IMG/VR virus record: IMGVR_UViG_3300032007_000013 | Direction: 5' to 3' (one strand) | Length of the DNA stretch: 64,000 nt | Source: a virus | Taxonomy: Duplodnaviria; Heunggongvirae; Uroviricota; Caudoviricetes | In this document: piece after piece, positions 4,181-23,026 of the stretch | Numbering within the stretch: position 1 is the stretch's first letter | Layout: each line of letters opens with the position of its first letter | Notes under the pieces: generated by a model | What the model was told of the DNA's origin: nothing | Seen by the model: the letters and a program-made list of their open reading frames with translations, nothing else | The model's database searches: none | Translations under genes and position numbers: made by a program

Positions 4181-5335
4181 ATGACAATTTCTATTGTTGT
4201 AGTTGGAATTGTTTGTCTTTTACTTGGTTTCTTGATAAGCACATTCATAAAAACTACAAAAATCAAAGAGAAAAACCAAGAGATTGAAAGAGAAGAAAAT
4301 TAGGCTTAGTTACGTATTAAAGATTTAGAGAAAGAATATATCCAAAAACAAGCTGAATTAGATAAATAGTATAATGAAACTATAAATCAATATAAAGCCG
4401 ATTATGAAGAACAAAATTTACGTTTAGAAGAGGCGGCAAATACTGCTTTATCTCAAATAAATTCTGAAAAATAGGCTTGGGAGCAAGAAAAAACAAAAAA
4501 AATTTTAACTTGGGCCCAGCATGAATCTGATTTAAAATCAGAAGTATCGAGTTTGGAACGTTAGATTACTGATAAAAAAAGATTCATTGATGATTTAGAT
4601 GAATAGGCAAAAACTGCTGTAAAATTAGTTGAAGAACAAGTTATTGATAATATGACTAATACAGTAGAGTAGCAAAGTAAAGAATTATATTCAACTTATG
4701 AAAAATTAGAAAGTGAATTAAAAGTACATTATACTGATTTAGCTGATGAATTATATGAGAAATTCCAAGAACATGATGAAAAATTAAGTAATTTAATTCT
4801 TACAAAAGAAAATGAATTAAATGAATTATAGGCAAAAGCAAAAGCTGCTATTGAGACTAATAAACGAATGGAATTAGAAAAATAGCAAAAAGATTTTTAC
4901 AGATTACAACTTTCTGATATAGATTTAGAAGAAATAAAACATATTAGATCTATTGAACATTATTTAAGAAAAAAAGAACCTTTAAATAAAGTTATTTGGA
5001 AAGTATATTATGAAAAGCCGTGTACAGATTTAATAGGTCGTGTTGTTGGATAGGGGAGAAAAACTGGTATTTATAAAATTACTAATATAGATAATGGAAT
5101 GTGCTATATAGGACAAGCGGTAGATATTGCTGAACGATGGAAATAGCATATTAAACGAGGTATAGGGGCAGACCCTCCTACGCAAAATAAATTATATCCT
5201 GCTATGTTATCTATTGGTGTAGAAAATTTTACATTTGAAGTAATTGAAGAATGTGCTGGAAATCTTTTAAATGATAGAGAAGATTATTGGCAAGAATTTT
5301 ATCAAGCAAAGGAATTTGGGTATAGTATAAAATGA
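4181..5335 (+). CDS. Membrane-anchored coiled-coil protein with C-terminal GIY-YIG nuclease domain (384 aa)
   Basis: Hydrophobic N-terminus MTISIVVVGIVCLLLGFLISTFI; long E/K/Q-rich helical region; GIYKITN...CYIGQAVDIAERWKQH...LNDREDYW. Continuous only with TAG=Q. Confidence 0.8.
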
Positions 5336-10749: not shown

Positions 10750-11840
10750 AAACCTATAATAAAAAAGAAGTCCGTGAGAAGCTCGGTATTGAACAAATAC
10801 ACGAGCTTCTTGTTGAATGGGGCGGAGAACCAGAATATTCTAGTTTTGGGCTAATAGCGGCTACTATATGTCATAATCCGCCAGGAGAAGGAAGTCGTAA
10901 ATTATATTATTACAGTAATACAGATTTGTTCTAGTGTTATACTGGATGCGGCAGTTTTGATATTTTTCAATTAGTAGTAAAAGTAGCTAAAATCCAATGG
11001 GGTAAAGAATATGATTTAAATGATGCTGTTCGATATATTGCTATTAGATTTGGTCTTGCTGGAGAAGTAGAGATTGAAGATGATAGTCTTATTGACTGGA
11101 AAGCATTTAATAATTATGATAGATTAGAAAATATAGATATAAAAGATTATCATACTACTTTAAAAGAATATGATACTAATATCTTAAAAAATTTAAATTA
11201 TAATGTGATAATTGAGCCTTGGTTAAAAGAAGGTATCACTGAATCAGTTATGAAAAGAGCGAATATAGGATATTTCCCGCCAACAGCTCAAATTACAATC
11301 CCACATTATGATATAGATGGACGTTTTATTGGACTTCGAGGACGCTTTTTATGTCAACCAGATATTGATATGTATGGAAAATATAGACCGATGATGATTG
11401 GTAAAAAATAGTTTAATCATCCTCTTGGTATGAATTTATACAATTTAAATAATTGTAAAGATAATATTAGAAAAATTAAAAAAGCTATTATTTTTGAAGG
11501 TGAAAAATCTGCTTTAAAATATATTTCTTATTTTGGAGAAGAAAATGATATAGCAGTTGCTTGTTGTGGTTCTAATATTTCTGCTTATCAAATGTAGTTA
11601 TTATTAGATTGTGGAGTAAAAGAAATCGCAATTGCTTTTGATAGACAATTTCAAGCTATTGATGATGAAGAATTTAAACACTTAACAAATAATTTAACTA
11701 AAATTAATGAAAGATATAAAAATTATGTAGATATATCTTTTGTTTTTGATAAGAAAATGATTACTGGATATAAAGATGCTCCAATTGATAAAGGACCGGA
11801 GGTTTTTATGGAGTTATGGAAAAAAAGAATAAAATTATAA
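10746..11840 (+). CDS. dnaG: DNA primase (Zn finger + TOPRIM) (364 aa)
   Basis: ICHN...QCYTGC zinc domain, TIPHYD..G..IG.RGR, IIFEGEKS, IAFDRQ TOPRIM motifs. Confidence 0.88.
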
Positions 11841-12070
11841 TTTGTCCTAATTGTGGTAATGAATGTTTTTATTTATATGATGAATGGGGCCGTACTCCAT
11901 GGCATTTACATTGTGATACATGTAGAATAAATATTGGTGGAGATAATTTTTAGTTTTGCGAAACTCTATTAAAAGATTACCATCAACCTAATACATATTT
12001 AGAATATTATAATAAAAAAATTCATTTTTTATGGATTGATAAAAAAGAAATTATCCCTTGGGAGGACTAA
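11816..12070 (+). CDS. Small zinc-ribbon protein (84 aa)
   Basis: MEKKNKIIICPNCGNEC...LHCDTCRINIGG. Confidence 0.6.
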
Positions 12071-12071
12071 T

Positions 12072-12359
12072 ATGGTAGGAATAATTTTTTATAAAAATTA
12101 GGCAAATGGGAAATGGCAATTTAAGAAAATAATTGAAAATTATAAACAATTAAATATAGAAGCAGTTAAAATAAAAACTGATGAAGTAGAATTTGAAAAT
12201 GGAGATTCGTGGTACGTAGTTCCATTTTCTCTTAGTATAGTAGGTAGAAGATGCAATATAGCTTATGTTGAATGGAGTATAAGTAAACAAGAGATTTATA
12301 CTATAATTGAACCAATGCTAACTTTAAAACCATATACCGCTATGCATATATTTTATTAA
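12072..12359 (+). CDS. Hypothetical protein (95 aa)
   Basis: GGAGG RBS; MVGIIFYKNQANGKWQF...MHIFY*. Confidence 0.65.
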
Positions 12360-14154: not shown

Positions 14155-14640
14155 ATGAAAGAAAATGATTTTTATACTAGTGAAGAGGTTCCTGTATTTT
14201 AGATATTTATAAATATTAATAATATTTCTAATTTAAAATGTTGTAAACCATATAATATAATTTATAATTTAGACGCTGGGATTATTGAATGTTCCACTAA
14301 ACATTCAATCTCTTCAGATCGAAAAACTAATAAAGAAGTTAGTACTTACACTTTAAAAATGGCTTATCTTCCAGAGCATTTTATTGAAGATGTATCATTC
14401 TTTGGAATATGGGATGAAATTTTAATTAAAGAATATCACAAGACTTTTAAACATGCAATAAATAAATTAGAAGAGGAAGATAAATTTTATGATATTATTT
14501 TTCCTACAATAGAGATAGAAGAATATTACAATAGGTCTGGTGACACAGAATATAAAATTATTATTACTGGCAGAAAAGAGATAAGTAATAAAACTTCATT
14601 TATTAAGGATATAAATTCTTTAATCTGCTCGGGGCGCTGA
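14155..14640 (+). CDS. Hypothetical protein, paralog of 25868-26242 (161 aa)
   Basis: Shares KTNK...K(M/V)A.LPE, IKE.H and YKIIITGR with the 25868 ORF. Confidence 0.7.
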
Positions 14641-14694
14641 TGGTGGCTTCATTCGACATCTGAAATTAAAATTGCTTTTAGAAATTTTTTATGT

Positions 14695-14759
14695 AAATAA
14701 CGGTTACTATAATTTTTCAGTAAAAATGATAAAATGGAAAATTTTGGTAGCCGTTATTT
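14695..14759. repeat. 15-bp imperfect inverted repeat
   Basis: AAATAACGGTTACTA ... TGGTAGCCGTTATTT (two G-U positions), 35-nt spacer. Confidence 0.65.
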
Positions 14760-14763
14760 TTAT

Positions 14764-14792
14764 TTGACAATATTAAATTATTATGATAAAAT
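14764..14792 (+). promoter_or_regulatory. Sigma70/SigA promoter with extended -10
   Basis: TTGACA-N17-TAAAAT with TG at the extended -10 position. Confidence 0.7.
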
Positions 14793-14913
14793 ATATATGA
14801 GAAAATAATAAGGTGATGAAAAATGGTAAATAATATAAAATTTGCTTTAACATTTGATGCTACAAAAGCTATAGGCTAGATTTTAGCAATATTAAGAGAG
14901 TTGAGAAAATATA

Positions 14914-15240
14914 ATGACAAATAATGATTACGAAAAAGCGATAGAAATAACAGAACAATTATTAGATATGATTTAGGTAGACAATTGGCTTTTACCTAAT
15001 TATCATAAAAAAGATATTCATGATATTATGTAGGATATTGAAGATGATATAGAAATTATCAGAGATGTCTATGAAATAAAAAATTTTATGGATAAACATA
15101 ATGATATTTTTGAAGGAATGATTTTTAATTGGATGGGTTCTGATGAATTTTTACAATATTGTCAAAAACGTTATCCTCAAATCAAATGGCGTACAGAAAT
15201 TATTGAGCGAACTTATATTGTAAGTGTAGGAGAGGACTGA
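14914..15240 (+). CDS. Hypothetical protein (108 aa)
   Basis: MTNNDYEKAIEITEQLLDMIQVDNW...VSVGED*. Confidence 0.65.
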
Positions 15241-15286
15241 CAATTTATTGTTGGCTAAAATTTTTGGACATATCTAACAATTTTAA

Positions 15287-15323
15287 TTTATAGTATTTTT
15301 ATATAATATGAAAATACTATAAA
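15287..15323 (+). promoter_or_regulatory. 13-bp hairpin abutting the RBS of the HNH gene
   Basis: TTTATAGTATTTT-N11-AAAATACTATAAA directly joined to AAAGGAGA. Confidence 0.65.
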
Positions 15324-15336
15324 GGAGATAATAAAA

Positions 15337-15837
15337 ATGATTAAATAGTGTGTAGTATGTGGGAAAGAGTTCGAGTGTAAAAGATCTACCGCAAAATATT
15401 GTTGTCGTCAATGCGAAAATCAAGCAAGAGCTAAAAGAATTAGAGAGAAACAATAGTTAAATGAAATTGATAAATATTGTTTAATTTGTGGTAAACCATT
15501 TCGTCCAAAATCTGGTGCTGCTAATCAAAGAACCTGCTGCTATGATTGTATGCCAGATGGAGTACAGTTAGGTAGAAGTGGATTTTTAGATTTATTACGA
15601 AAAGCACGAGGAGGACAATGTTAGCGATGTGGTTATAATAATTATTTAGGAGCATTAGATTTCCATCATATAAATCCAACAGAAAAAGATTTTACAATAG
15701 GAAATAGAGATTATAAATTAAAAGAATGTGTAGAAGAAACAAAAAAATGTGTGTTATTATGTTCCAATTGTCATCGTGAGATTCATGCTGGTCTATGGGA
15801 TATAAAAGAAATTTTAAATAAAAAGGAAAAAAAATAA
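15337..15837 (+). CDS. Free-standing HNH homing endonuclease with zinc-finger N-terminus (166 aa)
   Basis: CVVCGKEF..C...C and CLICGKPF repeats; CQRCGYNNYLGALDFHHINP...LLCSNCHREIH. Confidence 0.88.
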
Positions 15838-15840
15838 ATT

Positions 15841-17119
15841 ATGGAAAATATTACATTAACAAATAAACAAGAGGAGGCGTTAAAATTAGCAGTAGCCAGA
15901 TACCAACTAGGGATGCCCTATACGGTAATTTCTGGCTACGCTTAACGCAGGTAGCGGAAAATCAACTTTAGTTAAATTTATTATTTCTGCTTTAAATCTT
16001 CCTCCAGAAAAAGTAGCATATGTAGCGTATACAGGGAAGGCGGCTAATGTTTTAAAAAATAAAGGATGTCAAAATGCTACTACTGCTCATAAATTATTAT
16101 ATTATGCTACAAAAAATAAAGAAGGAAAATTTATTTTTAAGCCAAAAGAACGATTAGATGCTGATTATGAATTAATTGTAGTAGATGAAGTTTCTATGTT
16201 ACCTGAAGAATTGTGGTATTAGTTATTATCACATGGAATTTATGTATTAGCAATGGGAGATCCTGGATAGTTACCTCCAGTAAAATCTAATGCGGCTCCA
16301 ATACTTGAAAAACCACATATATTCCTTGATGAAATAATGCGACAAGCACAAGAAAGTGCTATTATTCGTTTATCTATGCATATTCGAGAAGGAAAAGATT
16401 TCGCTTCATTCCCGATTGTCAGTGGAGAAGTTCGTATTATTCCTCATAGATATTTATTTAATGATGAAGATATAACTCTCCTACAAGCATCACAAGTAAT
16501 TTGTGGAACAAATAAAGAGCGTAATAGACTTAATAATCGTATTCGATTTTTACAAGGCCGAAGTGAAGTTCCAGAAGTTGGTGATAAATTAATAGGGCTT
16601 GATAATCATTGGGATTGTATCAGCGTGGCCGGTAATGCCTTAACTAATGGTGCTATTGGAACAACTCCTGGTTATATTTTAAAAGAATAGACTTATAATA
16701 AAAATAATATTAAATTTAAAGATTTTCCAGATTCTACTACATTAATGTGGACTAAATTTTATACAGAAGATGGAGATAATTTTGAAACAGAAATTCCTAT
16801 TGATTATAATTGTTTAATAACAGGAGATCCGTCATTAGATTCTAAACAAGAAGCAACATTATCTATTTATCAAAAGAATTTAATTAGTAGAAGTATGAAA
16901 AATTTAAGTTTTGATCCATTTCTTTATTGGAAAGAAATTCCATATCATTTTAATTATGGTTATGCTATTACTTGTTGGAAAGCATAGGGTAGCGAGTATC
17001 CTTATGTATTAGGGTATGACTGTAGTTGGTTAAAGAAAAAAGATCCTGAACAATATAAAAAATATATGTATACTCTTTGCACCCGCGCTTCAGAAGCCGT
17101 AATTTTAGTAGGAGATTAA
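15841..17119 (+). CDS. Dda/RecD-like SF1B helicase with a 7-nt insertion in Walker A
   Basis: MENITLTNKQ...ISGYA[TAACGCA]GSGKST; AYTGKAA, VVDEVSM, GDPGQLPPV, YGYAITCWKAQGSEY, YTLCTRAS. Confidence 0.88.
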
Positions 17120-17120
17120 A

Positions 17121-17300
17121 ATGACTAATTTTACAGAAGATTTTAACAATATTTTTAATGGATTATAGTCTCTTCGAAATCATCTTGAAGTTGAATTAAA
17201 TAATTTAAATTAGCGTATAAGTTATTTAGAATATAAACAAAATCAAGATGATGAATTTTATAAAGATTTAGAACTTTTAATTCAAAAGAGGAATAAATAA
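17121..17300 (+). CDS. Small coiled-coil hypothetical protein (59 aa)
   Basis: GGAG RBS; open with TAG=Q. Confidence 0.55.
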
Positions 17301-17301
17301 A

Positions 17302-17484
17302 ATGGGGATTGAAATTACTCAAGAATTATTAGATGAAATAAATATATTTTTAAATACAAGGGCAGTTTAGGTTTTAAATGATGATGCTGAATTAAGCTTT
17401 TCTGCTATGGCTTTTGTTTTACAAAGTATAGTGTCTGCTGTTGATGAAGCGCAGGAAGAACTTGACAAAAAAGAAAAAATGTGA
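17302..17484 (+). CDS. Small hypothetical protein (60 aa)
   Basis: GAGG RBS; MGIEITQELLDEIN...LDKKEKM*. Confidence 0.55.
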
Positions 17485-17490
17485 TACAAT
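17462..17490 (+). promoter_or_regulatory. Sigma70/SigA promoter
   Basis: TTGACA-N17-TACAAT with TG at the extended -10 position. Confidence 0.75.
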
Positions 17491-17492
17491 AT

Positions 17493-17555
17493 ACATAGAG
17501 ATTATAATAATATAAGAAAAAAATTTTTGGACGAATACTATTATAATCTCTATGT
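17493..17555. repeat. Perfect 17-bp inverted repeat upstream of the endonuclease gene
   Basis: ACATAGAGATTATAATA ... TATTATAATCTCTATGT; the spacer contains AAATTTTTGGAC. Confidence 0.8.
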
Positions 17556-17591
17556 GATTTTTCAAATCTTTATGAAGGAGTGAATAATATA

Positions 17592-18503
17592 ATGAAAATG
17601 ATAGATTTAACTAATTAGAGATTTGGAAAATTATTAGTATTAGAAAGAGATTATAATTATCCACATAAAGGAACATATTGGAAATGTAAATGTGATTGTG
17701 GTAATTATATTACTGTTAGAAAAGATTAGTTAACTAAAACAAATCCAAAAACCAGTTGTGGTTGTGATTTAAGTGAAAAAAATTCAAAGGCTCATTTAAA
17801 AAATGAAGTAGGGAATAAATATGGATACTTAACTGTTTTAAAACGAGTACCAGATTTACGGAAAGGAGAAGCAAGATGGTTATGTCAATGTGATTGTGGC
17901 AATACTTGTGAGGTATCTGGATTACATTTACGGAATGGTACAGTCTAGTCTTGTGGATGTAAGAAATTTGAAAGTAAAAATAGTATTGAAGAAATACCTG
18001 GTACTAAATATGGAAATTTAACAGTTATGTATAAAAGTAATTTTAAAAAAAATGGCAAAATATATTGGCATTGTAAATGTGATTGCGGCAATGAGTGTGA
18101 TGTTTTAGGAACATATTTAAGAAATGGAATTAGTTCTCATTGCGGATGTAAAAAAAGTGCTGGTGAAATAAAAATTATGAAACTATTAGTAGATGCTAAT
18201 ATAAGTTTTAAAAGAGAATATACCTTCCCTGATTTAATAGGTGATGGTGGAAATAGATTAAGATTTGATTTTGGAATTTTTGATGATAATGATAATTTAT
18301 CTTATTTAATTGAATATAATGGAAAACAACATTATGATTAGGAGTGTTTTGATTAGACTAATGAATAGTTTACATTATTACAAAAATATGATAAAATGAA
18401 AAAAGAATATTGTAAATAGAGAAATATTCCATTAATTATTTTAGATTATACTCAATTAACTAAAATAACATTAAAAGATTTAATCTATAAAGAGGGTGAT
18501 TAA
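17592..18503 (+). CDS. Free-standing homing-type endonuclease: three CxCDCG...CGC repeats + PD-(D/E)XK/Vsr-like domain (303 aa)
   Basis: RFGKLLV..WKCKCDCG..SCGC repeated three times; C-terminal LRFDF...IEYNGKQHY...DKMKKEYC..RNIPLI. Confidence 0.82.
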
Positions 18504-21500
18504 TATAAATACTCAGATTTCGACTTATTTTGATTGTCATGCTCACACTGAGTATTCTTAAATTTAATATAAGATTAATTGACTGTATCAATCATCCAAA
18601 AGACTTAATTAATAGAGCGATTGAAATAGGGCTTAGTGGATGTAGTATAACTGACCACGAGGCTCTATGTTCGCATATGATTGTTAATAAGTATGCTAAG
18701 GAAATAAAAGAAAAATATCCTGACTTTACAATCGCATTAGGTAATGAAATTTATCTTACAGATACGAGAGATAAAGGACAAAAATATTATCACTTTATTT
18801 TATTGGCAAAGGATAGATTAGGATATAAAGGTCTTTGTGAATTAAGTTCAACTGCTTGGTATAATGTTTATGTTGATAGACGACTTGAAAGAGTACCAAC
18901 ATTAAAAAATGAACTTAAAGAAATTATGAAAAAATATAAAGGTCATATAATTGCGACAACTGCTTGTATGGGCGGCGAATTATCTACAAATTTATATGGC
19001 TTAGCATTAGCAAGAAAAAATCAAGATAAAACAATGGAAATGGCATACTATAATAGTGCTGTTGAATTTATAAATTTTTGTATTGACGTTTTTGGAAAAG
19101 AAGATTTTTATATTGAGTGTGCCCCAAGTACAAAGCCAGATTAGGTAATTGTAAATAAACAATTATTAAATGTTGCTCATGCATTTGAATTAAAAATGGT
19201 TGTAGGGACAGATGCTCATTATCTCAAAAAAGAAGATAGATATGTTCATAAATCATATTTGAATTCAAAGCAAGAAGAACGTGAAGTTGATGATTTTTAT
19301 GAATATGCTTATATGCAATCACCAGAAGAGGTAAGAGAACATTTAAGTGCCTCAATGAGCGATAGAGATATTGATTGGATATTTGAAAATTCATTAGAAG
19401 TCAAAAATAAAATAGATTTTTATAGTCTTGAAAAACATCAGCATATTCCAGAAGTAAGAGTAAAAGAATACAGTAAAGATTGTTGGAAATATATCCATAT
19501 TAACTTTAATGAATATCCAATTTTAAAACAATTATTTATAAGTGATAATGTTCAAGAACGATATTGGGTTAATGAATGTATTGATGCTCTAATTTTAAAA
19601 GGATTAATAGATGATAAAAGATATTTAGATAGACTTGAAGAGGAAGCACGAGTAAAAAGAGTCATTGGAGAAAAACTTGAAACTTGTATGTTCGCATATC
19701 CAAATACTCTTCAACATTATATTGATTTGTTTTGGCGATGTGGCAGTACAGTTGGAGCAGGTCGTGGCTCAGCATGTTCGGGTCTAAACCATTATCTTTT
19801 AGGAGTAACTCAACTAGATCCAATTAAGTGGAATTTACCATTCTGGCGTTATCTTAATGATGAACGTGTTGAATTAGGTGATATTGACTTAGACCTAGCT
19901 CCAAGTAAACTTCCAAAAATTTTTGAAGAAATTCGCAAAGAACGTGGGGAATTAGGTATTGTTCAAGTTTGTACTTTTGGTACAGAAGCAACTAAATCTG
20001 CGGTTTTAACTGCGTGCCGTGGTTATAGAAGTGAAGAATACCCAGATGGTATCGACGTTGATGATGCTCAGTATATTTCATCATTAGTACCACAAGAGCG
20101 TGGATTTTTGTGGGATTTACATGATATGATTGAAGGTAACCCTGATAAAGGCAGATTACCGCAAAGACAATTTATTAATACAGTAAATCAATATCCAGGT
20201 CTTTTGGATATTATGAAAGGTATTGAAGGACTAGTATCTCGTCGAGGAATTCATGCCTCTGGTGTTATTTTATTTGATGAAGATATATTTAGTGAAGCAG
20301 CTATTATGCGAGCGAGGAATGGAAATTTAACGACTCAATGGGACTTACATGACCAAGAATCTGCTGGTAGTGTTAAGTATGACTTTCTTTTAACCGCAGT
20401 TCAAGATATTATTATTGAAACAATAGATTTACTTCAAGCAGATGAAGTAATAGATCCAACTTTATCTTTAAGACAAGTATATAATAAATATTTACACCCA
20501 AATGTAATTCCGCAAGATGATCCAAAAATATGGGACGCATTAGCAAAAGGTAGTGTGTTAGGAGTATTTTAGTTTGAAGGTTCTGTTGGAGCACAGGCGG
20601 CTAAAAAAATTAAACCATAGAATCCGTTGGAAATGGCTGATGCAAATGGATTAATGCGACTTATGGCAAGTGAACCAGGGGCAGAAATGCCACTTGATAA
20701 ATATGTTCGTTATAAAAATGATATTAATCAGTGGTATATGGAAATGGACAGATGTGGATTAACAAAAGAAGAGCAAAAAGCAATTGAACCACATTTTAAA
20801 TCTTCATATGGTGTCCCACCAAGTCAAGAGCAGTTAATGCGAATGTTAATGGATGAAAATATTTGTGGTTTTACATTGGCAGAAGCAAATGCGGCTCGTA
20901 AAATTGTTGGTAAAAAACAAATGTCTAAAATTCCCGGATTAAAAGAAAAAGTATTAACATCTGCGAAATCTCCAAAATTAGGTGCTTATATTTGGAAATA
21001 TGGGGCCGGCCCGCAGATGGGTTATTCATTCTCGATTATTCATGCCTTGGCTTATTCATTTATTGGTATGCAAACCTTATATCTTGGAGTTTATTATCCA
21101 GTATATTGGAATACCGCATATTTAATTGTTAATAGTGGAGCATTAGGCGGTGATGAAGATGATGATGGAGATAAACAAGATGGGACAGATTATAAAAAAA
21201 TCGCAAAAGCAATTGGACAAATTAGAGCGGCTGGCATTCAAGTAAGTTTAGCAGACATTAATCGTTCTGAATTTGGATTTGTCCCAGACCCAGAAAATAA
21301 TCAAATTCTTTTTGGGATGAAAGGTATGTTAAATGTTGGTGATGATATTATTGAAGAAATTATTTCACATCGACCTTACGTATCTCCAAGAGATTTTATT
21401 AATAAAGTAAAACCAAATAAACAAGTTATGATTTCTTTAATTAAAGGTGGAGCTTTTGATAACTTAATGGATCGAAAAGAATGTATGGCTTGGTATTTAT

Positions 21501-22417
21501 GGGAAAATTGTGATAGGAAAAAAAGAATTACTTTATAGAATATGGCTGGATTAATGAAGTATCAATTAGTTCCAGAAGATACTGATGAAAGAATAATGGC
21601 TCGTAGGGTATATGAATTTAATAGATATTTAAAAGCTATTACAATTCCTGCTAATAAATTAAAACCATATTATGTATTAGACGAACGAGCATTAGCATTT
21701 TTATTAAATACTGGAAAAGAAGAATTAATTTGTCAAAATGGTGATTGGTACTGTTTATTAAAGGCTGATTGGGATAAAATCTACCAAACATAGATGGATG
21801 TATTTCGTAAATGGATTGCAGAAAATCATGATTAGATATTAGCTACTTTAAATAAACTAATATTTATGGATGAATGGAATAAGTATGCGAAAGGAACTAT
21901 TTCTGCTTGGGAAATGGAAGCTTTATGTTTTTATTATCATGACCATGAATTAGCAAATATTAATAATTCAAGATATGGTTTTGTAGATTTTAATAAATTG
22001 CCAACTGAACCTGAAATAGATAGAACATTTACAAAAGGTGGTCGCACAATTAATTTATATAAATTGTATAAAATATGCGGGACTTGTATAGCAAAAAATA
22101 AAAATAAAAGCACCGTAACTTTATTAACAACTACTGGTGTAGTAGATGTTAAATTTAAAAAAGAATATTTTGCTTTATTTGATAAACGTATTTCTGCTAA
22201 AGGTGAAGATGGGAAAAAACATATTATTGAAAAGTCTTGGTTTGATCGTGGAAGTATGATTATCGTATAGGGCATTAGATTAGATGATATGTTTGTATCA
22301 AAAAAATATGCTTCTTCTGGCGGGCATCAATTATATAAAATTGATGAAGTAGTCGATGATGAAATTAAAATCAGAACTACTCGTGCCCAAGGTGATGAAG
22401 AAGATGACGATGATTAA
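18496..22417 (+). CDS. dnaE: DNA polymerase III alpha subunit (DnaE) with a 7-nt insertion after the PHP HxH motif (~1300 aa)
   Basis: YFDCHAHTEYS[TAAATTT]NIRLIDC; ITDHE, GTDAHY, GAGRGSA, DIDLD, GIHASG, KYDFL, GVFQFE, YSFSIIHALAYS. Start is GTG 18496 or a nearby ATT/ATA behind GAGGGTG. Confidence 0.93.
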
Positions 22418-22444
22418 TTGAAATGTTTATTAGGAGAAAAATAT

Positions 22445-23026
22445 ATGTCAGAAAAATATACTATAATTGCTTTGATGGGGAAAGCTGGTTCTGGTAAAGA
22501 CACTATAATGCGGGCATTATTAAAATAGCCCGCATTTAAGGATGCTGTCCCTATTATCAGTTGTACTACTCGTCCTAGACGAGAAAAAGAACAAAATGGA
22601 GTAGATTACCATTTTTTAACAAATGAAGAATTTACTAATAAAATTCTTTCTGGTGATATGTTAGAAGCTACTGTTTTTAATGATTGGTGCTATGGAACAT
22701 CATTAGAAAATTTATCAAAAGATAAAGTTAATATTGGAGTTTTTAATCCAGAAGGAGTAGGATTATTAAGAGGAAATTCTAATATTAATTTAAAACTTAT
22801 TTATATTGAAGCTAATGATAAAGATAGATTGTTAAGATAGTTAAATAGAGAAAAAAACCCAGACGTACATGAAATTATTCGTCGTTATTCTGCGGATGAA
22901 ATGGATTTTACAGAAGAAGAAATTTAGTATCTTGAACCAGATTGCTTTATTACTAATAATGATGGCGGCAGCGTGAATCATATTGCCAAAGCTATCGCGG
23001 GTGCCTATGCCTCAGGGCAATTATAA
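22445..23026 (+). CDS. gmk: Guanylate kinase-like protein (193 aa)
   Basis: GKAGSGKDT, SCTTRPRREKEQNGVDYHF, WCYGTS. Confidence 0.88.

Follow-up and report, generated by a model that had tools for sequence, protein, structure and literature searches.

The dnaE Locus

The stretch of DNA analyzed here, referred to throughout as the window, comprises 64,000 nucleotides (nt) of the Caudoviricetes record IMGVR_UViG_3300032007_000013, a low-GC phage (GC about 28%) in which TAG is decoded as Gln. The sequencing runs and contigs that carry the locus come from rumen or gut samples of cattle, goats, and sheep. Our subject is dnaE, the gene for its DNA polymerase III alpha subunit, which is interrupted near its 5' end by 7 nt beginning with a stop codon. 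Features of this gene, of the nuclease gene upstream of it, and of a similarly interrupted helicase gene are summarized in Table 1.

The main dnaE frame runs from AAT 18566 to TAA 22415 and includes seven in-frame TAG codons, one of which (position 20570) falls within the GVFQFE motif. Upstream, positions 18538–18558 read CAT GCT CAC ACT GAG TAT TCT in another frame; there follow TAAATTT and then AAT ATA AGA TTA ATT GAC. The downstream frame also contains TTG 18530 and ATG 18539. A sequence-only reading of the window had described this TAA-first insertion in the PHP motif of DnaE, had noted that its removal would join HAHTEYS to NIRLIDC and roughly 1,280 further codons (the frame has 1283), and had pointed to the two possible starts downstream and to a matching 7-nt insertion in the helicase gene. 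The letters agree on every count, including the helicase junction (GCT 15940–42, TAACGCA 15943–49, GGT 15950).

Table 1. Features of the interrupted dnaE and helicase genes in the window
Feature	Position	Strand	Details
HNH homing-endonuclease gene	15337–15837	+	phrog_2255, E 4e-24; 5' of helicase; absent from L001, L005
Helicase leader	15842–15942	+	34 codons, ending ...TVISGYA; take-off GCT 15940–42
Helicase 7-nt gap, TAACGCA	15943–15949	+	within Walker A; stop TAA, C, cognate landing GCA
Main RecD/UvrD-like helicase frame	15950–17119	+	begins GSGKST
Promoter-like site	17462–17490	+	TTGACA, 17 nt, TG-n-TACAAT; 11/12 matches, TG extension; cassette begins just 3'
Perfect 16-nt inverted repeat	17494–17509 / 17539–17554	+	cassette left end; CATAGAGATTATAATA / TATTATAATCTCTATG
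Free-standing homing-endonuclease gene (P0002)	17580–18503	+	307 amino acids, 7 TAG read as Gln; alternative start ATG 17592
dnaE leader (cassette-borne replacement start)	18496–18558	+	21 codons, MININTQISTYFDCHAHTEYS; start GTG 18496
7-base-pair RNA hairpin, AUGCUCA-CAC-UGAGUAU	18539–18555	+	ends directly 5' of take-off UCU
Take-off codon TCT (Ser)	18556–18558	+	TCT or TCC here in all gapped relatives
7-nt coding gap, TAAATTT	18559–18565	+	stop TAA, one base, near-cognate landing triplet TTT 18563–18565
Main dnaE frame	18566–22417	+	1283 codons plus stop; PHP, Pol III alpha, finger, and HhH domains

The Interruption in Relatives and Independent Samples

Approximately 90 related dnaE loci from IMG/VR and public metagenomes were compared with the window. 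In about 70 of them (including L001, L002, and L005), HxHTxYS is joined directly to NxRLxDC, as in HAHTEYS-NIRLIDC; the insert is therefore exactly 7 nt and lies exactly at this Ser-Asn (S|N) junction. Identical TAAATTT sequences are found in L003 and L004, IMG/VR contigs from two other samples. Public sequencing runs, examined as Logan contigs, were also aligned to the window. The independent DNA run X3 provides a contig across 17658–18833 with no gaps and with TAAATTT present, and two contigs from RNA libraries, which may contain DNA too, likewise retain it: X10 (18464–18775, identical to the window) and X20 (17458–18595, from an L003-like strain). No contig without the 7 nt was seen among the public-run contigs aligned to the window. 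The single rumen sample X20 holds both alleles, one gapped and one empty (17493 joined to 18566), and the same gap occurs in at least five independent samples.

Because independent DNA and RNA-library contigs carry the same insert, a sequencing or assembly artefact is excluded; even when combined with the possibility that the 7 nt are excised from the RNA, which nothing supports, it retains a negligible probability. Arguing further against RNA-level removal, no Rfam intron was matched in window positions 14500–23000 at E values up to 0.1, and the window has no upstream exon. The read-mapping and ortholog-alignment checks that had been proposed thus both bear on the locus directly: the run contigs keep TAAATTT, and uninterrupted relatives join Ser straight to Asn. 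The earlier argument that two separate insertions are unlikely to be random errors also holds.

Two intron-like arrangements were considered and rejected. A group I intron with a homing endonuclease would fit neither the lack of an Rfam ribozyme, nor the lack of a dnaE exon upstream of the nuclease gene, nor the retention of the 7 nt in RNA contigs. The layout of L006 was read manually for splice sites, none of which restores the frame.

A Mobile Homing-Endonuclease Cassette at dnaE

Comparison with the nuclease-free relatives L001 and L005 reveals identity up to approximately 17493, none over 17494–18565, and resumption exactly at 18566 (100% over 135 nt). This break defines a unit of about 1.07 kb, a mobile homing-endonuclease cassette composed of the inverted repeat, the nuclease gene, a replacement dnaE start, and the gap. 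The 7 bases are its right-hand end, which explains why the insert exists. In entering, the cassette replaced the native ribosome-binding site and the first 15 codons of dnaE. The nuclease gene, P0002, is absent from L001 and L005, whose DnaE proteins share 88–99% identity with that of the window; close relatives thus differ in whether the locus contains the nuclease, and the polymorphism has a sharply defined boundary and a divergent flank.

P0002 comprises repeated CxCxCG DNA-binding modules and a PD-(D/E)XK-like C-terminal domain. Its PHROG matches are annotated as HNH or homing endonucleases (phrog_374, E 1e-49; phrog_559; phrog_9084; range 1e-49 to 1e-21), and DUF2726 is matched weakly. 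The dnaE leader begins 8 nt inside the nuclease open reading frame (ORF); L006 and L040 have ATG at the position of the window's GTG. Relative to the nuclease-free allele, the leader differs at synonymous sites and by a 6-codon extension, and cassette leaders in general differ mostly synonymously or by residues found in natural N-termini. An exact-pattern search for the leader in IMG/VR returned only the three contigs already known.

L006 and L040 carry a different nuclease, which shares the N-terminal CxCxCG modules with P0002 but whose C-terminus is of the HNH type; the same leader comes next, and then other 7-nt gaps (TAGTGCT and TAGCTCT, respectively). L006 also retains the displaced native dnaE start (MVQTFFDCHAHTEY...) 5' of its nuclease gene. 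This native start (L006:2140–2200), with a Shine-Dalgarno (SD) sequence, TTG, and VQTFFDCHAHTEY, marks the left insertion point of that cassette between a Tyr and a Ser codon.

The promoter-like site just outside the cassette also precedes dnaE in L003 and in the nuclease-free L001 and L005. The inverted repeat, which lies between this promoter and the nuclease gene, is found in L003 but in neither L001 nor L005; a role as attenuator or as a site for RNA processing is possible.

In L043 (1542–2500), L057, and L060, an uninterrupted dnaE directly follows a P0002-like nuclease gene. Such a nuclease can therefore be accommodated in ways other than the gap, of which substitutions in the target site may be one.

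The Helicase Cassette

The helicase gene carries a cassette of similar design, with an HNH nuclease gene, a leader, and a 7-nt gap within Walker A (Table 1); the helicases of L001 and L005 have neither the HNH gene nor the gap. The two cassettes are independent of each other, since L040 combines a gapped dnaE with an intact helicase and the L007/L013 contig shows the reverse. The main helicase frame contains no ATG, GTG, or TTG before the P-loop, so the gene could not be rescued by reinitiation of translation.

Over window positions 15865–17121 the helicase DNA is approximately 77% identical to that of L001 and L005, compared with 92–100% for flanking genes. This suggests that a long co-conversion tract brought in the whole helicase gene along with the HNH cassette.

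Nuclease Genes and Hairpins Accompany the Gaps

A nuclease gene lies directly upstream of 10 of 12 interrupted dnaE genes and of 3 of 63 uninterrupted ones (Fisher p 2e-8); for the helicase, an HNH homologue is upstream of 7 of 13 gapped and 0 of 43 ungapped genes (Fisher p 7e-6), although many cassettes share ancestry and these counts overstate their independence. Gaps without a nuclease gene occur in L012, L013, L030, L045, L046, and L083. They look like cases of nuclease loss, and L083 retains the last codons of a nuclease ORF.

The 7-base-pair hairpin preceding the dnaE gap arises only from three synonymous differences from the nuclease-free allele (GCA>GCT, ACA>ACT, and GAA>GAG). It is retained in L003, L006, and L040; L046, L095, and L105 have different stems that end at the same place before the take-off codon, the last codon read before the gap. 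In the helicase leader, a larger hairpin (15888–15942; dG -34.1 kcal/mol, z -4.0) includes the take-off GCT in its base. Hairpins were compared by folding energies, since the different register of L092 precluded a common pair table. Among 54 distinct helicase leaders, the eight most stable are all gapped (Mann-Whitney p 4e-4), and inner stems of gapped leaders differ in sequence. The corresponding shift toward stability at gapped dnaE loci is weaker (p 0.0025).

A Common Layout for Gaps of Different Lengths

The gaps found in the two genes are listed in Table 2. They measure 5, 7, 8, 10, or 11 nt, none of these lengths being divisible by three; no in-frame gap occurs among the ~90 loci. Because these lengths need different frame changes, no single frameshift explains all gaps. 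The first codon of the gap is TAA, TAG, or TGA in 16 of 17 distinct gaps. The exception, L092, opens with the rare codon CGG; its CGGTG helicase gap (~495–500) lies 3' of an HNH gene, is accompanied by a different hairpin, and recalls the "hungry codon" variants of T4 gene 60.

Table 2. Coding gaps at the two junctions
Junction	Take-off codon	Gap	Length (nt)	Occurrence or remark
dnaE S|N	TCT	TAAATTT	7	window, L003, L004
dnaE S|N	TCT	TAGTGCT	7	L006
dnaE S|N	TCT	TAGCTCT	7	L040
dnaE S|N	TCC	TAGGTAAGTCC	11	L046
dnaE S|N	TCC	TGATGTCT	8	L095
dnaE S|N	TCT	TGAAGTCT	8	L105
helicase A|G	GCT	TAACGC[A/G/C]	7	
helicase A|G	GCC	T[A/G]AAAGCA	8	
helicase A|G	GCT	TAAAAAGGCT	10	
helicase A|G	GC[T/C]	TGAC[T/C]	5	
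helicase A|G	GCC	TAAGGTA	7	
helicase A|G	GCC	CGGTG	5	rare CGG, no stop

The layout of almost all gaps is a take-off codon, a stop codon, 0–5 bases, a triplet resembling the take-off codon, and then the next conserved codon. In 9 of 16 distinct gaps the final triplet matches the take-off codon in its first two bases (chance 1/16 each, p 1e-7); counted by rough lineage, the match holds in five of nine (p 1e-4). Landing triplets are cognate in L040, L046, L095, and L105 and in the window helicase (GCU/GCA). In the window dnaE, UCU and UUU share two of three bases, and G·U pairing is possible. Take-off codons are always NCY, and TCY is found in only 5 of 52 uninterrupted dnaE copies.

Forty-five loci with P0002-like nucleases were scanned for the combination of leader, stop, and cognate landing. 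One new true case emerged, the dnaE of L105; four other candidates were false positives, being ordinary genes (two of them ligase-like) with their own starts. No gap-like junction is present at the other ORF overlaps of the window (3480, 5287, and 11816–12359). An ORF at window positions 4181–5335 has 11 TAG codons, a C-terminal GIY-YIG homing-endonuclease domain, and weak N-terminal matches to holins or spanins; no gap-like junction was seen downstream of it.

The Interrupted Genes Look Alive

If the cassette had inactivated dnaE, and the helicase with it, the phage would have to rely on other polymerases or be defective. Translation does meet a stop after 21 codons and would need rescue, but several observations make such a broken gene very improbable. 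The downstream frames are full length, and the 1283-codon dnaE frame has stayed open in an AT-rich genome. Between gapped copies the ratio of nonsynonymous to synonymous substitution rates (dN/dS) is 0.08–0.26 (0.08–0.23 for the main dnaE frame), a range that cannot by itself prove selection since the gap was acquired, because cassettes move between backgrounds. The recurrence of the same gap in at least five independent samples points the same way. Gaps also outlast nuclease loss: lineages without the nuclease gene, whose helicases now share 50–71% identity, still have the 5-nt gap and intact frames.

The seven PHP metal ligands encoded in the main frame (D6, H31, E61, H76, C134, D216, and H218) are invariant, and alignment to Thermus Pol III alpha (2HPI) locates the other two, the HxH pair, within the leader.

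The dnaE genes of some relatives (L001:4002–5016, L011:4273–5293, and L007:5494–6680) are interrupted after residues 428 and 819 by inserts of roughly 1 kb, all with a GIY-YIG ORF and with U...G boundaries at which removal restores the frame; the window dnaE has none. These inserts look like group I introns, though an Rfam search of L001, L007, and L011 gave no match at the gathering threshold.

How the Gap May Be Decoded

The break falls within a conserved metal-binding motif and must therefore be removed at translation. Within the cassette explanation, a short ribosomal hop over the 7 nt is the most likely decoding, a judgment that we hold with modest confidence. We infer the hop and its efficiency from comparison among the loci: it is the only single mechanism that fits every gap length, and it would restore the conserved motifs exactly. 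By analogy with T4 mobA/gene 60, the gap would break the target sequence of the nuclease and so leave the carrier genome uncut. During translation, the ribosome would pause with peptidyl-tRNA-Ser on UCU 18556–58 and UAA in its A site. The tRNA would then detach, the messenger RNA (mRNA) would slip forward by 7 nt, and the tRNA would re-pair on UUU 18563–65 (A-U, G·U, G·U). Decoding would restart at AAU 18566, yielding HAHTEYS-NIRLIDC, the same sequence as in uninterrupted relatives. The forward slip may be powered by the hairpin as it re-zips immediately behind the ribosome; the 3' arm of the hairpin, which would lie inside the ribosome at take-off, could act like the mRNA pairing of gene 60.

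The sequence-only reading had likewise proposed stop-first insertions in need of recoding and a hop by tRNA-Ser, and the comparison favors that proposal; it had missed the homing-endonuclease context, and the UUU landing it suggested is only near-cognate.

Several observations weigh against a hop. The landing triplets of the window (UUU) and of L006 (GCU) are not Ser codons, and pairing on landing would be weak. The three 7-nt dnaE variants would also fit a +1 shift at UCU-UAR. Frameshifting is evidently used in this gene, as dnaE of some relatives contains CUU UGA C, the type of +1 site found in the RF2 gene. This phage family has three extra residues (NIR) directly after the Ser in comparison with Thermus Pol III alpha, and for that reason two more at this junction might be tolerated. 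Hairpins occur at the same place in some uninterrupted dnaE loci too. Finally, the stop-hops that Weiss and colleagues described in 1987 in E. coli are reportedly inefficient.

These points lend some weight to a +1 frameshift at UCU-UAA-A, in which AAA would be read, with or without a slip of tRNA-Ser to CUU, to give HTEYS-KF-NIRLIDC; we nevertheless consider it unlikely. An insert of 7 nt is a +1 change, with the stop directly in the A site, and the GAG that the cassette created from GAA lies 3 nt before UCU, the spacing of the SD element at the RF2 site. The S-to-D loop is already longer than in Thermus by the three residues, and UUU is not a cognate landing. True CUU-UGA-C sites occur five codons (~15 nt) beyond the S|N junction in L010, L066, L067, L074, L082, and L083. 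However, UCU to CUU would be a poor re-pairing that leaves one mismatch and relies on two wobbles. At these junctions, the gaps of 5, 8, and 11 nt would call for +2 or -1 shifts, and +1 or -1 decoding of the 8- and 10-nt helicase gaps would break the spacing of Walker A. The dipeptides that the 7-nt dnaE gaps would encode (KF, SA, or SS) indicate no constraint at the protein level, and if two additional residues were tolerated, an in-frame insert would serve, yet the ~90 loci include none.

The CUU UGA C sites again lie 3' of an HNH-type homing-endonuclease gene, of which L083 retains the tail only. At L010:2985–3010, a 1-nt insert makes CUU UGA C between a Leu and an Asp codon of the PHP motif. 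A separate in-frame TGA is found at dnaE codon 526 of L095 (~4079), across which the protein alignment to the window continues to residue 1209; it may be a further recoding site or an assembly error.

Distinctly less probable again is a split gene, in which a 21-residue peptide would end at TAA 18559 and translation would reinitiate at ATG 18539 or TTG 18530. The product would be a DnaE without the HxH motif, starting MLTLSILKFNIR, with the leader peptide bound or not. Both starts are in the DnaE frame, stop/start overlaps occur within gaps (TGATG in L095; TTGA in L012 and L013), and T4 and Aeh1 tolerate genes split by nucleases. However, no SD sequence precedes 18530 or 18539, although SD sequences are strong in the genes here; the His-Ala codons impose the ATG, so that its conservation is uninformative; and the overlaps are not conserved (CTG in L030 and L045). 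The window helicase, as noted above, offers no start before its P-loop. All nine PHP ligands are retained, two of them only in the leader, and changes in the leader are mostly synonymous.

Comparison with Known Recoding Systems

In phage T4, mobA and gene 60 belong to a single mobile element in which a nuclease is combined with a copy of the target carried by the insert and with a bypass gap that protects the carrier from cleavage. Stop or hungry codons open gaps of the gene 60 type, the nuclease may be exchanged or lost, and it has been proposed that the ribosome is driven forward by mRNA pairing behind it. In a metagenomic survey of such gaps, the shortest was 20 nt. Both the cassette logic and latitude in landing pairing have precedent (Bonocora 2011, as cited in the review PMC5009743; Manning and Atkins, bioRxiv 10.1101/2022.08.31.505936).

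The dnaE cassette resembles the T4 element in having its nuclease gene directly upstream, with the new target start overlapping the nuclease ORF out of frame (by 8 nt here and 8–32 nt there). In both, the insert carries its own diverged copy of target coding sequence (homR) before the gap, and the gap opens with a stop or rare codon just after a take-off codon and closes with a landing codon. Nuclease types are swapped (here HNH and PD-(D/E)XK-like), the gap outlives the nuclease, and the interrupted site is a conserved metal- or nucleotide-binding motif. There are also differences. Gaps here are 5–11 nt, compared with 50 nt (range 20–50), and contain no take-off stem-loop or mini-SD; the whole hairpin lies 5' of the gap, with its end at the take-off codon. 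Instead of a topoisomerase gene, the cassettes have entered dnaE and a RecD-like helicase gene; the domain architecture of the nuclease differs, and, since the cassette lies at its 5' end, the gene is not divided into two subunits. Landing is often near-cognate here, and the hop is a proposal from sequence comparison.

The synthetic E. coli stop-hops (Weiss et al. 1987, discussed in PMC5009743) are alike in that a tRNA leaves the codon before a stop and re-pairs on a matching codon a few bases on. They were artificial and reportedly inefficient, unlike the hop proposed here, which would be natural, out of frame, and hairpin-assisted, and would occur in essential genes. The same review regards natural use of stop-hops as not known.

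The +1 site CUU UGA C of RF2 (prfB) shares with the window a stop in the A site after a P-site codon ending in a pyrimidine, and the exact sequence is present in dnaE of L010 and L066, again 3' of a nuclease gene. Unlike the RF2 site, UCU-UAA-A of the window cannot re-pair in +1, has only the 3-nt SD-like GAG, and lacks an autoregulatory logic.

The byp elements of Magnusiomyces capitatus mitochondria (27–55 nt; cited in PMC5009743) are also numerous, short, mobile bypassed inserts with matched or near-matched codons. They differ in being mitochondrial and longer, and they are not known to be linked to homing endonucleases or to have such an upstream hairpin. Full-text literature searches found no description of gaps of 5–11 nt in dnaE or helicase genes.

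Implications

What is known of programmed bypassing comes in effect from one phage system, T4 gene 60 with its homologues, and from the yeast mitochondrial byps. We would put at about even the chance that hops of 5–11 nt constitute a natural and widespread class of recoding, launched from NCY codons at a stop, driven by hairpins, and serving as portable self-immunity for several families of free-standing homing endonucleases that settle in the best-conserved motifs of essential phage genes (the PHP motif of DnaE and the P-loop of the helicase). The approximately 17 natural gap variants, from two genes, 5–11 nt long, with cognate or near-cognate landings, and with or without hairpins, amount to a ready mutational series on how the ribosome lets go and lands. 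For annotation, the consequence is that such genes in recoded phages of the gut and rumen should not be labeled pseudogenes or given truncated starts. More broadly, the locus shows selfish nucleases invading catalytic motifs without the aid of an intron or an intein.

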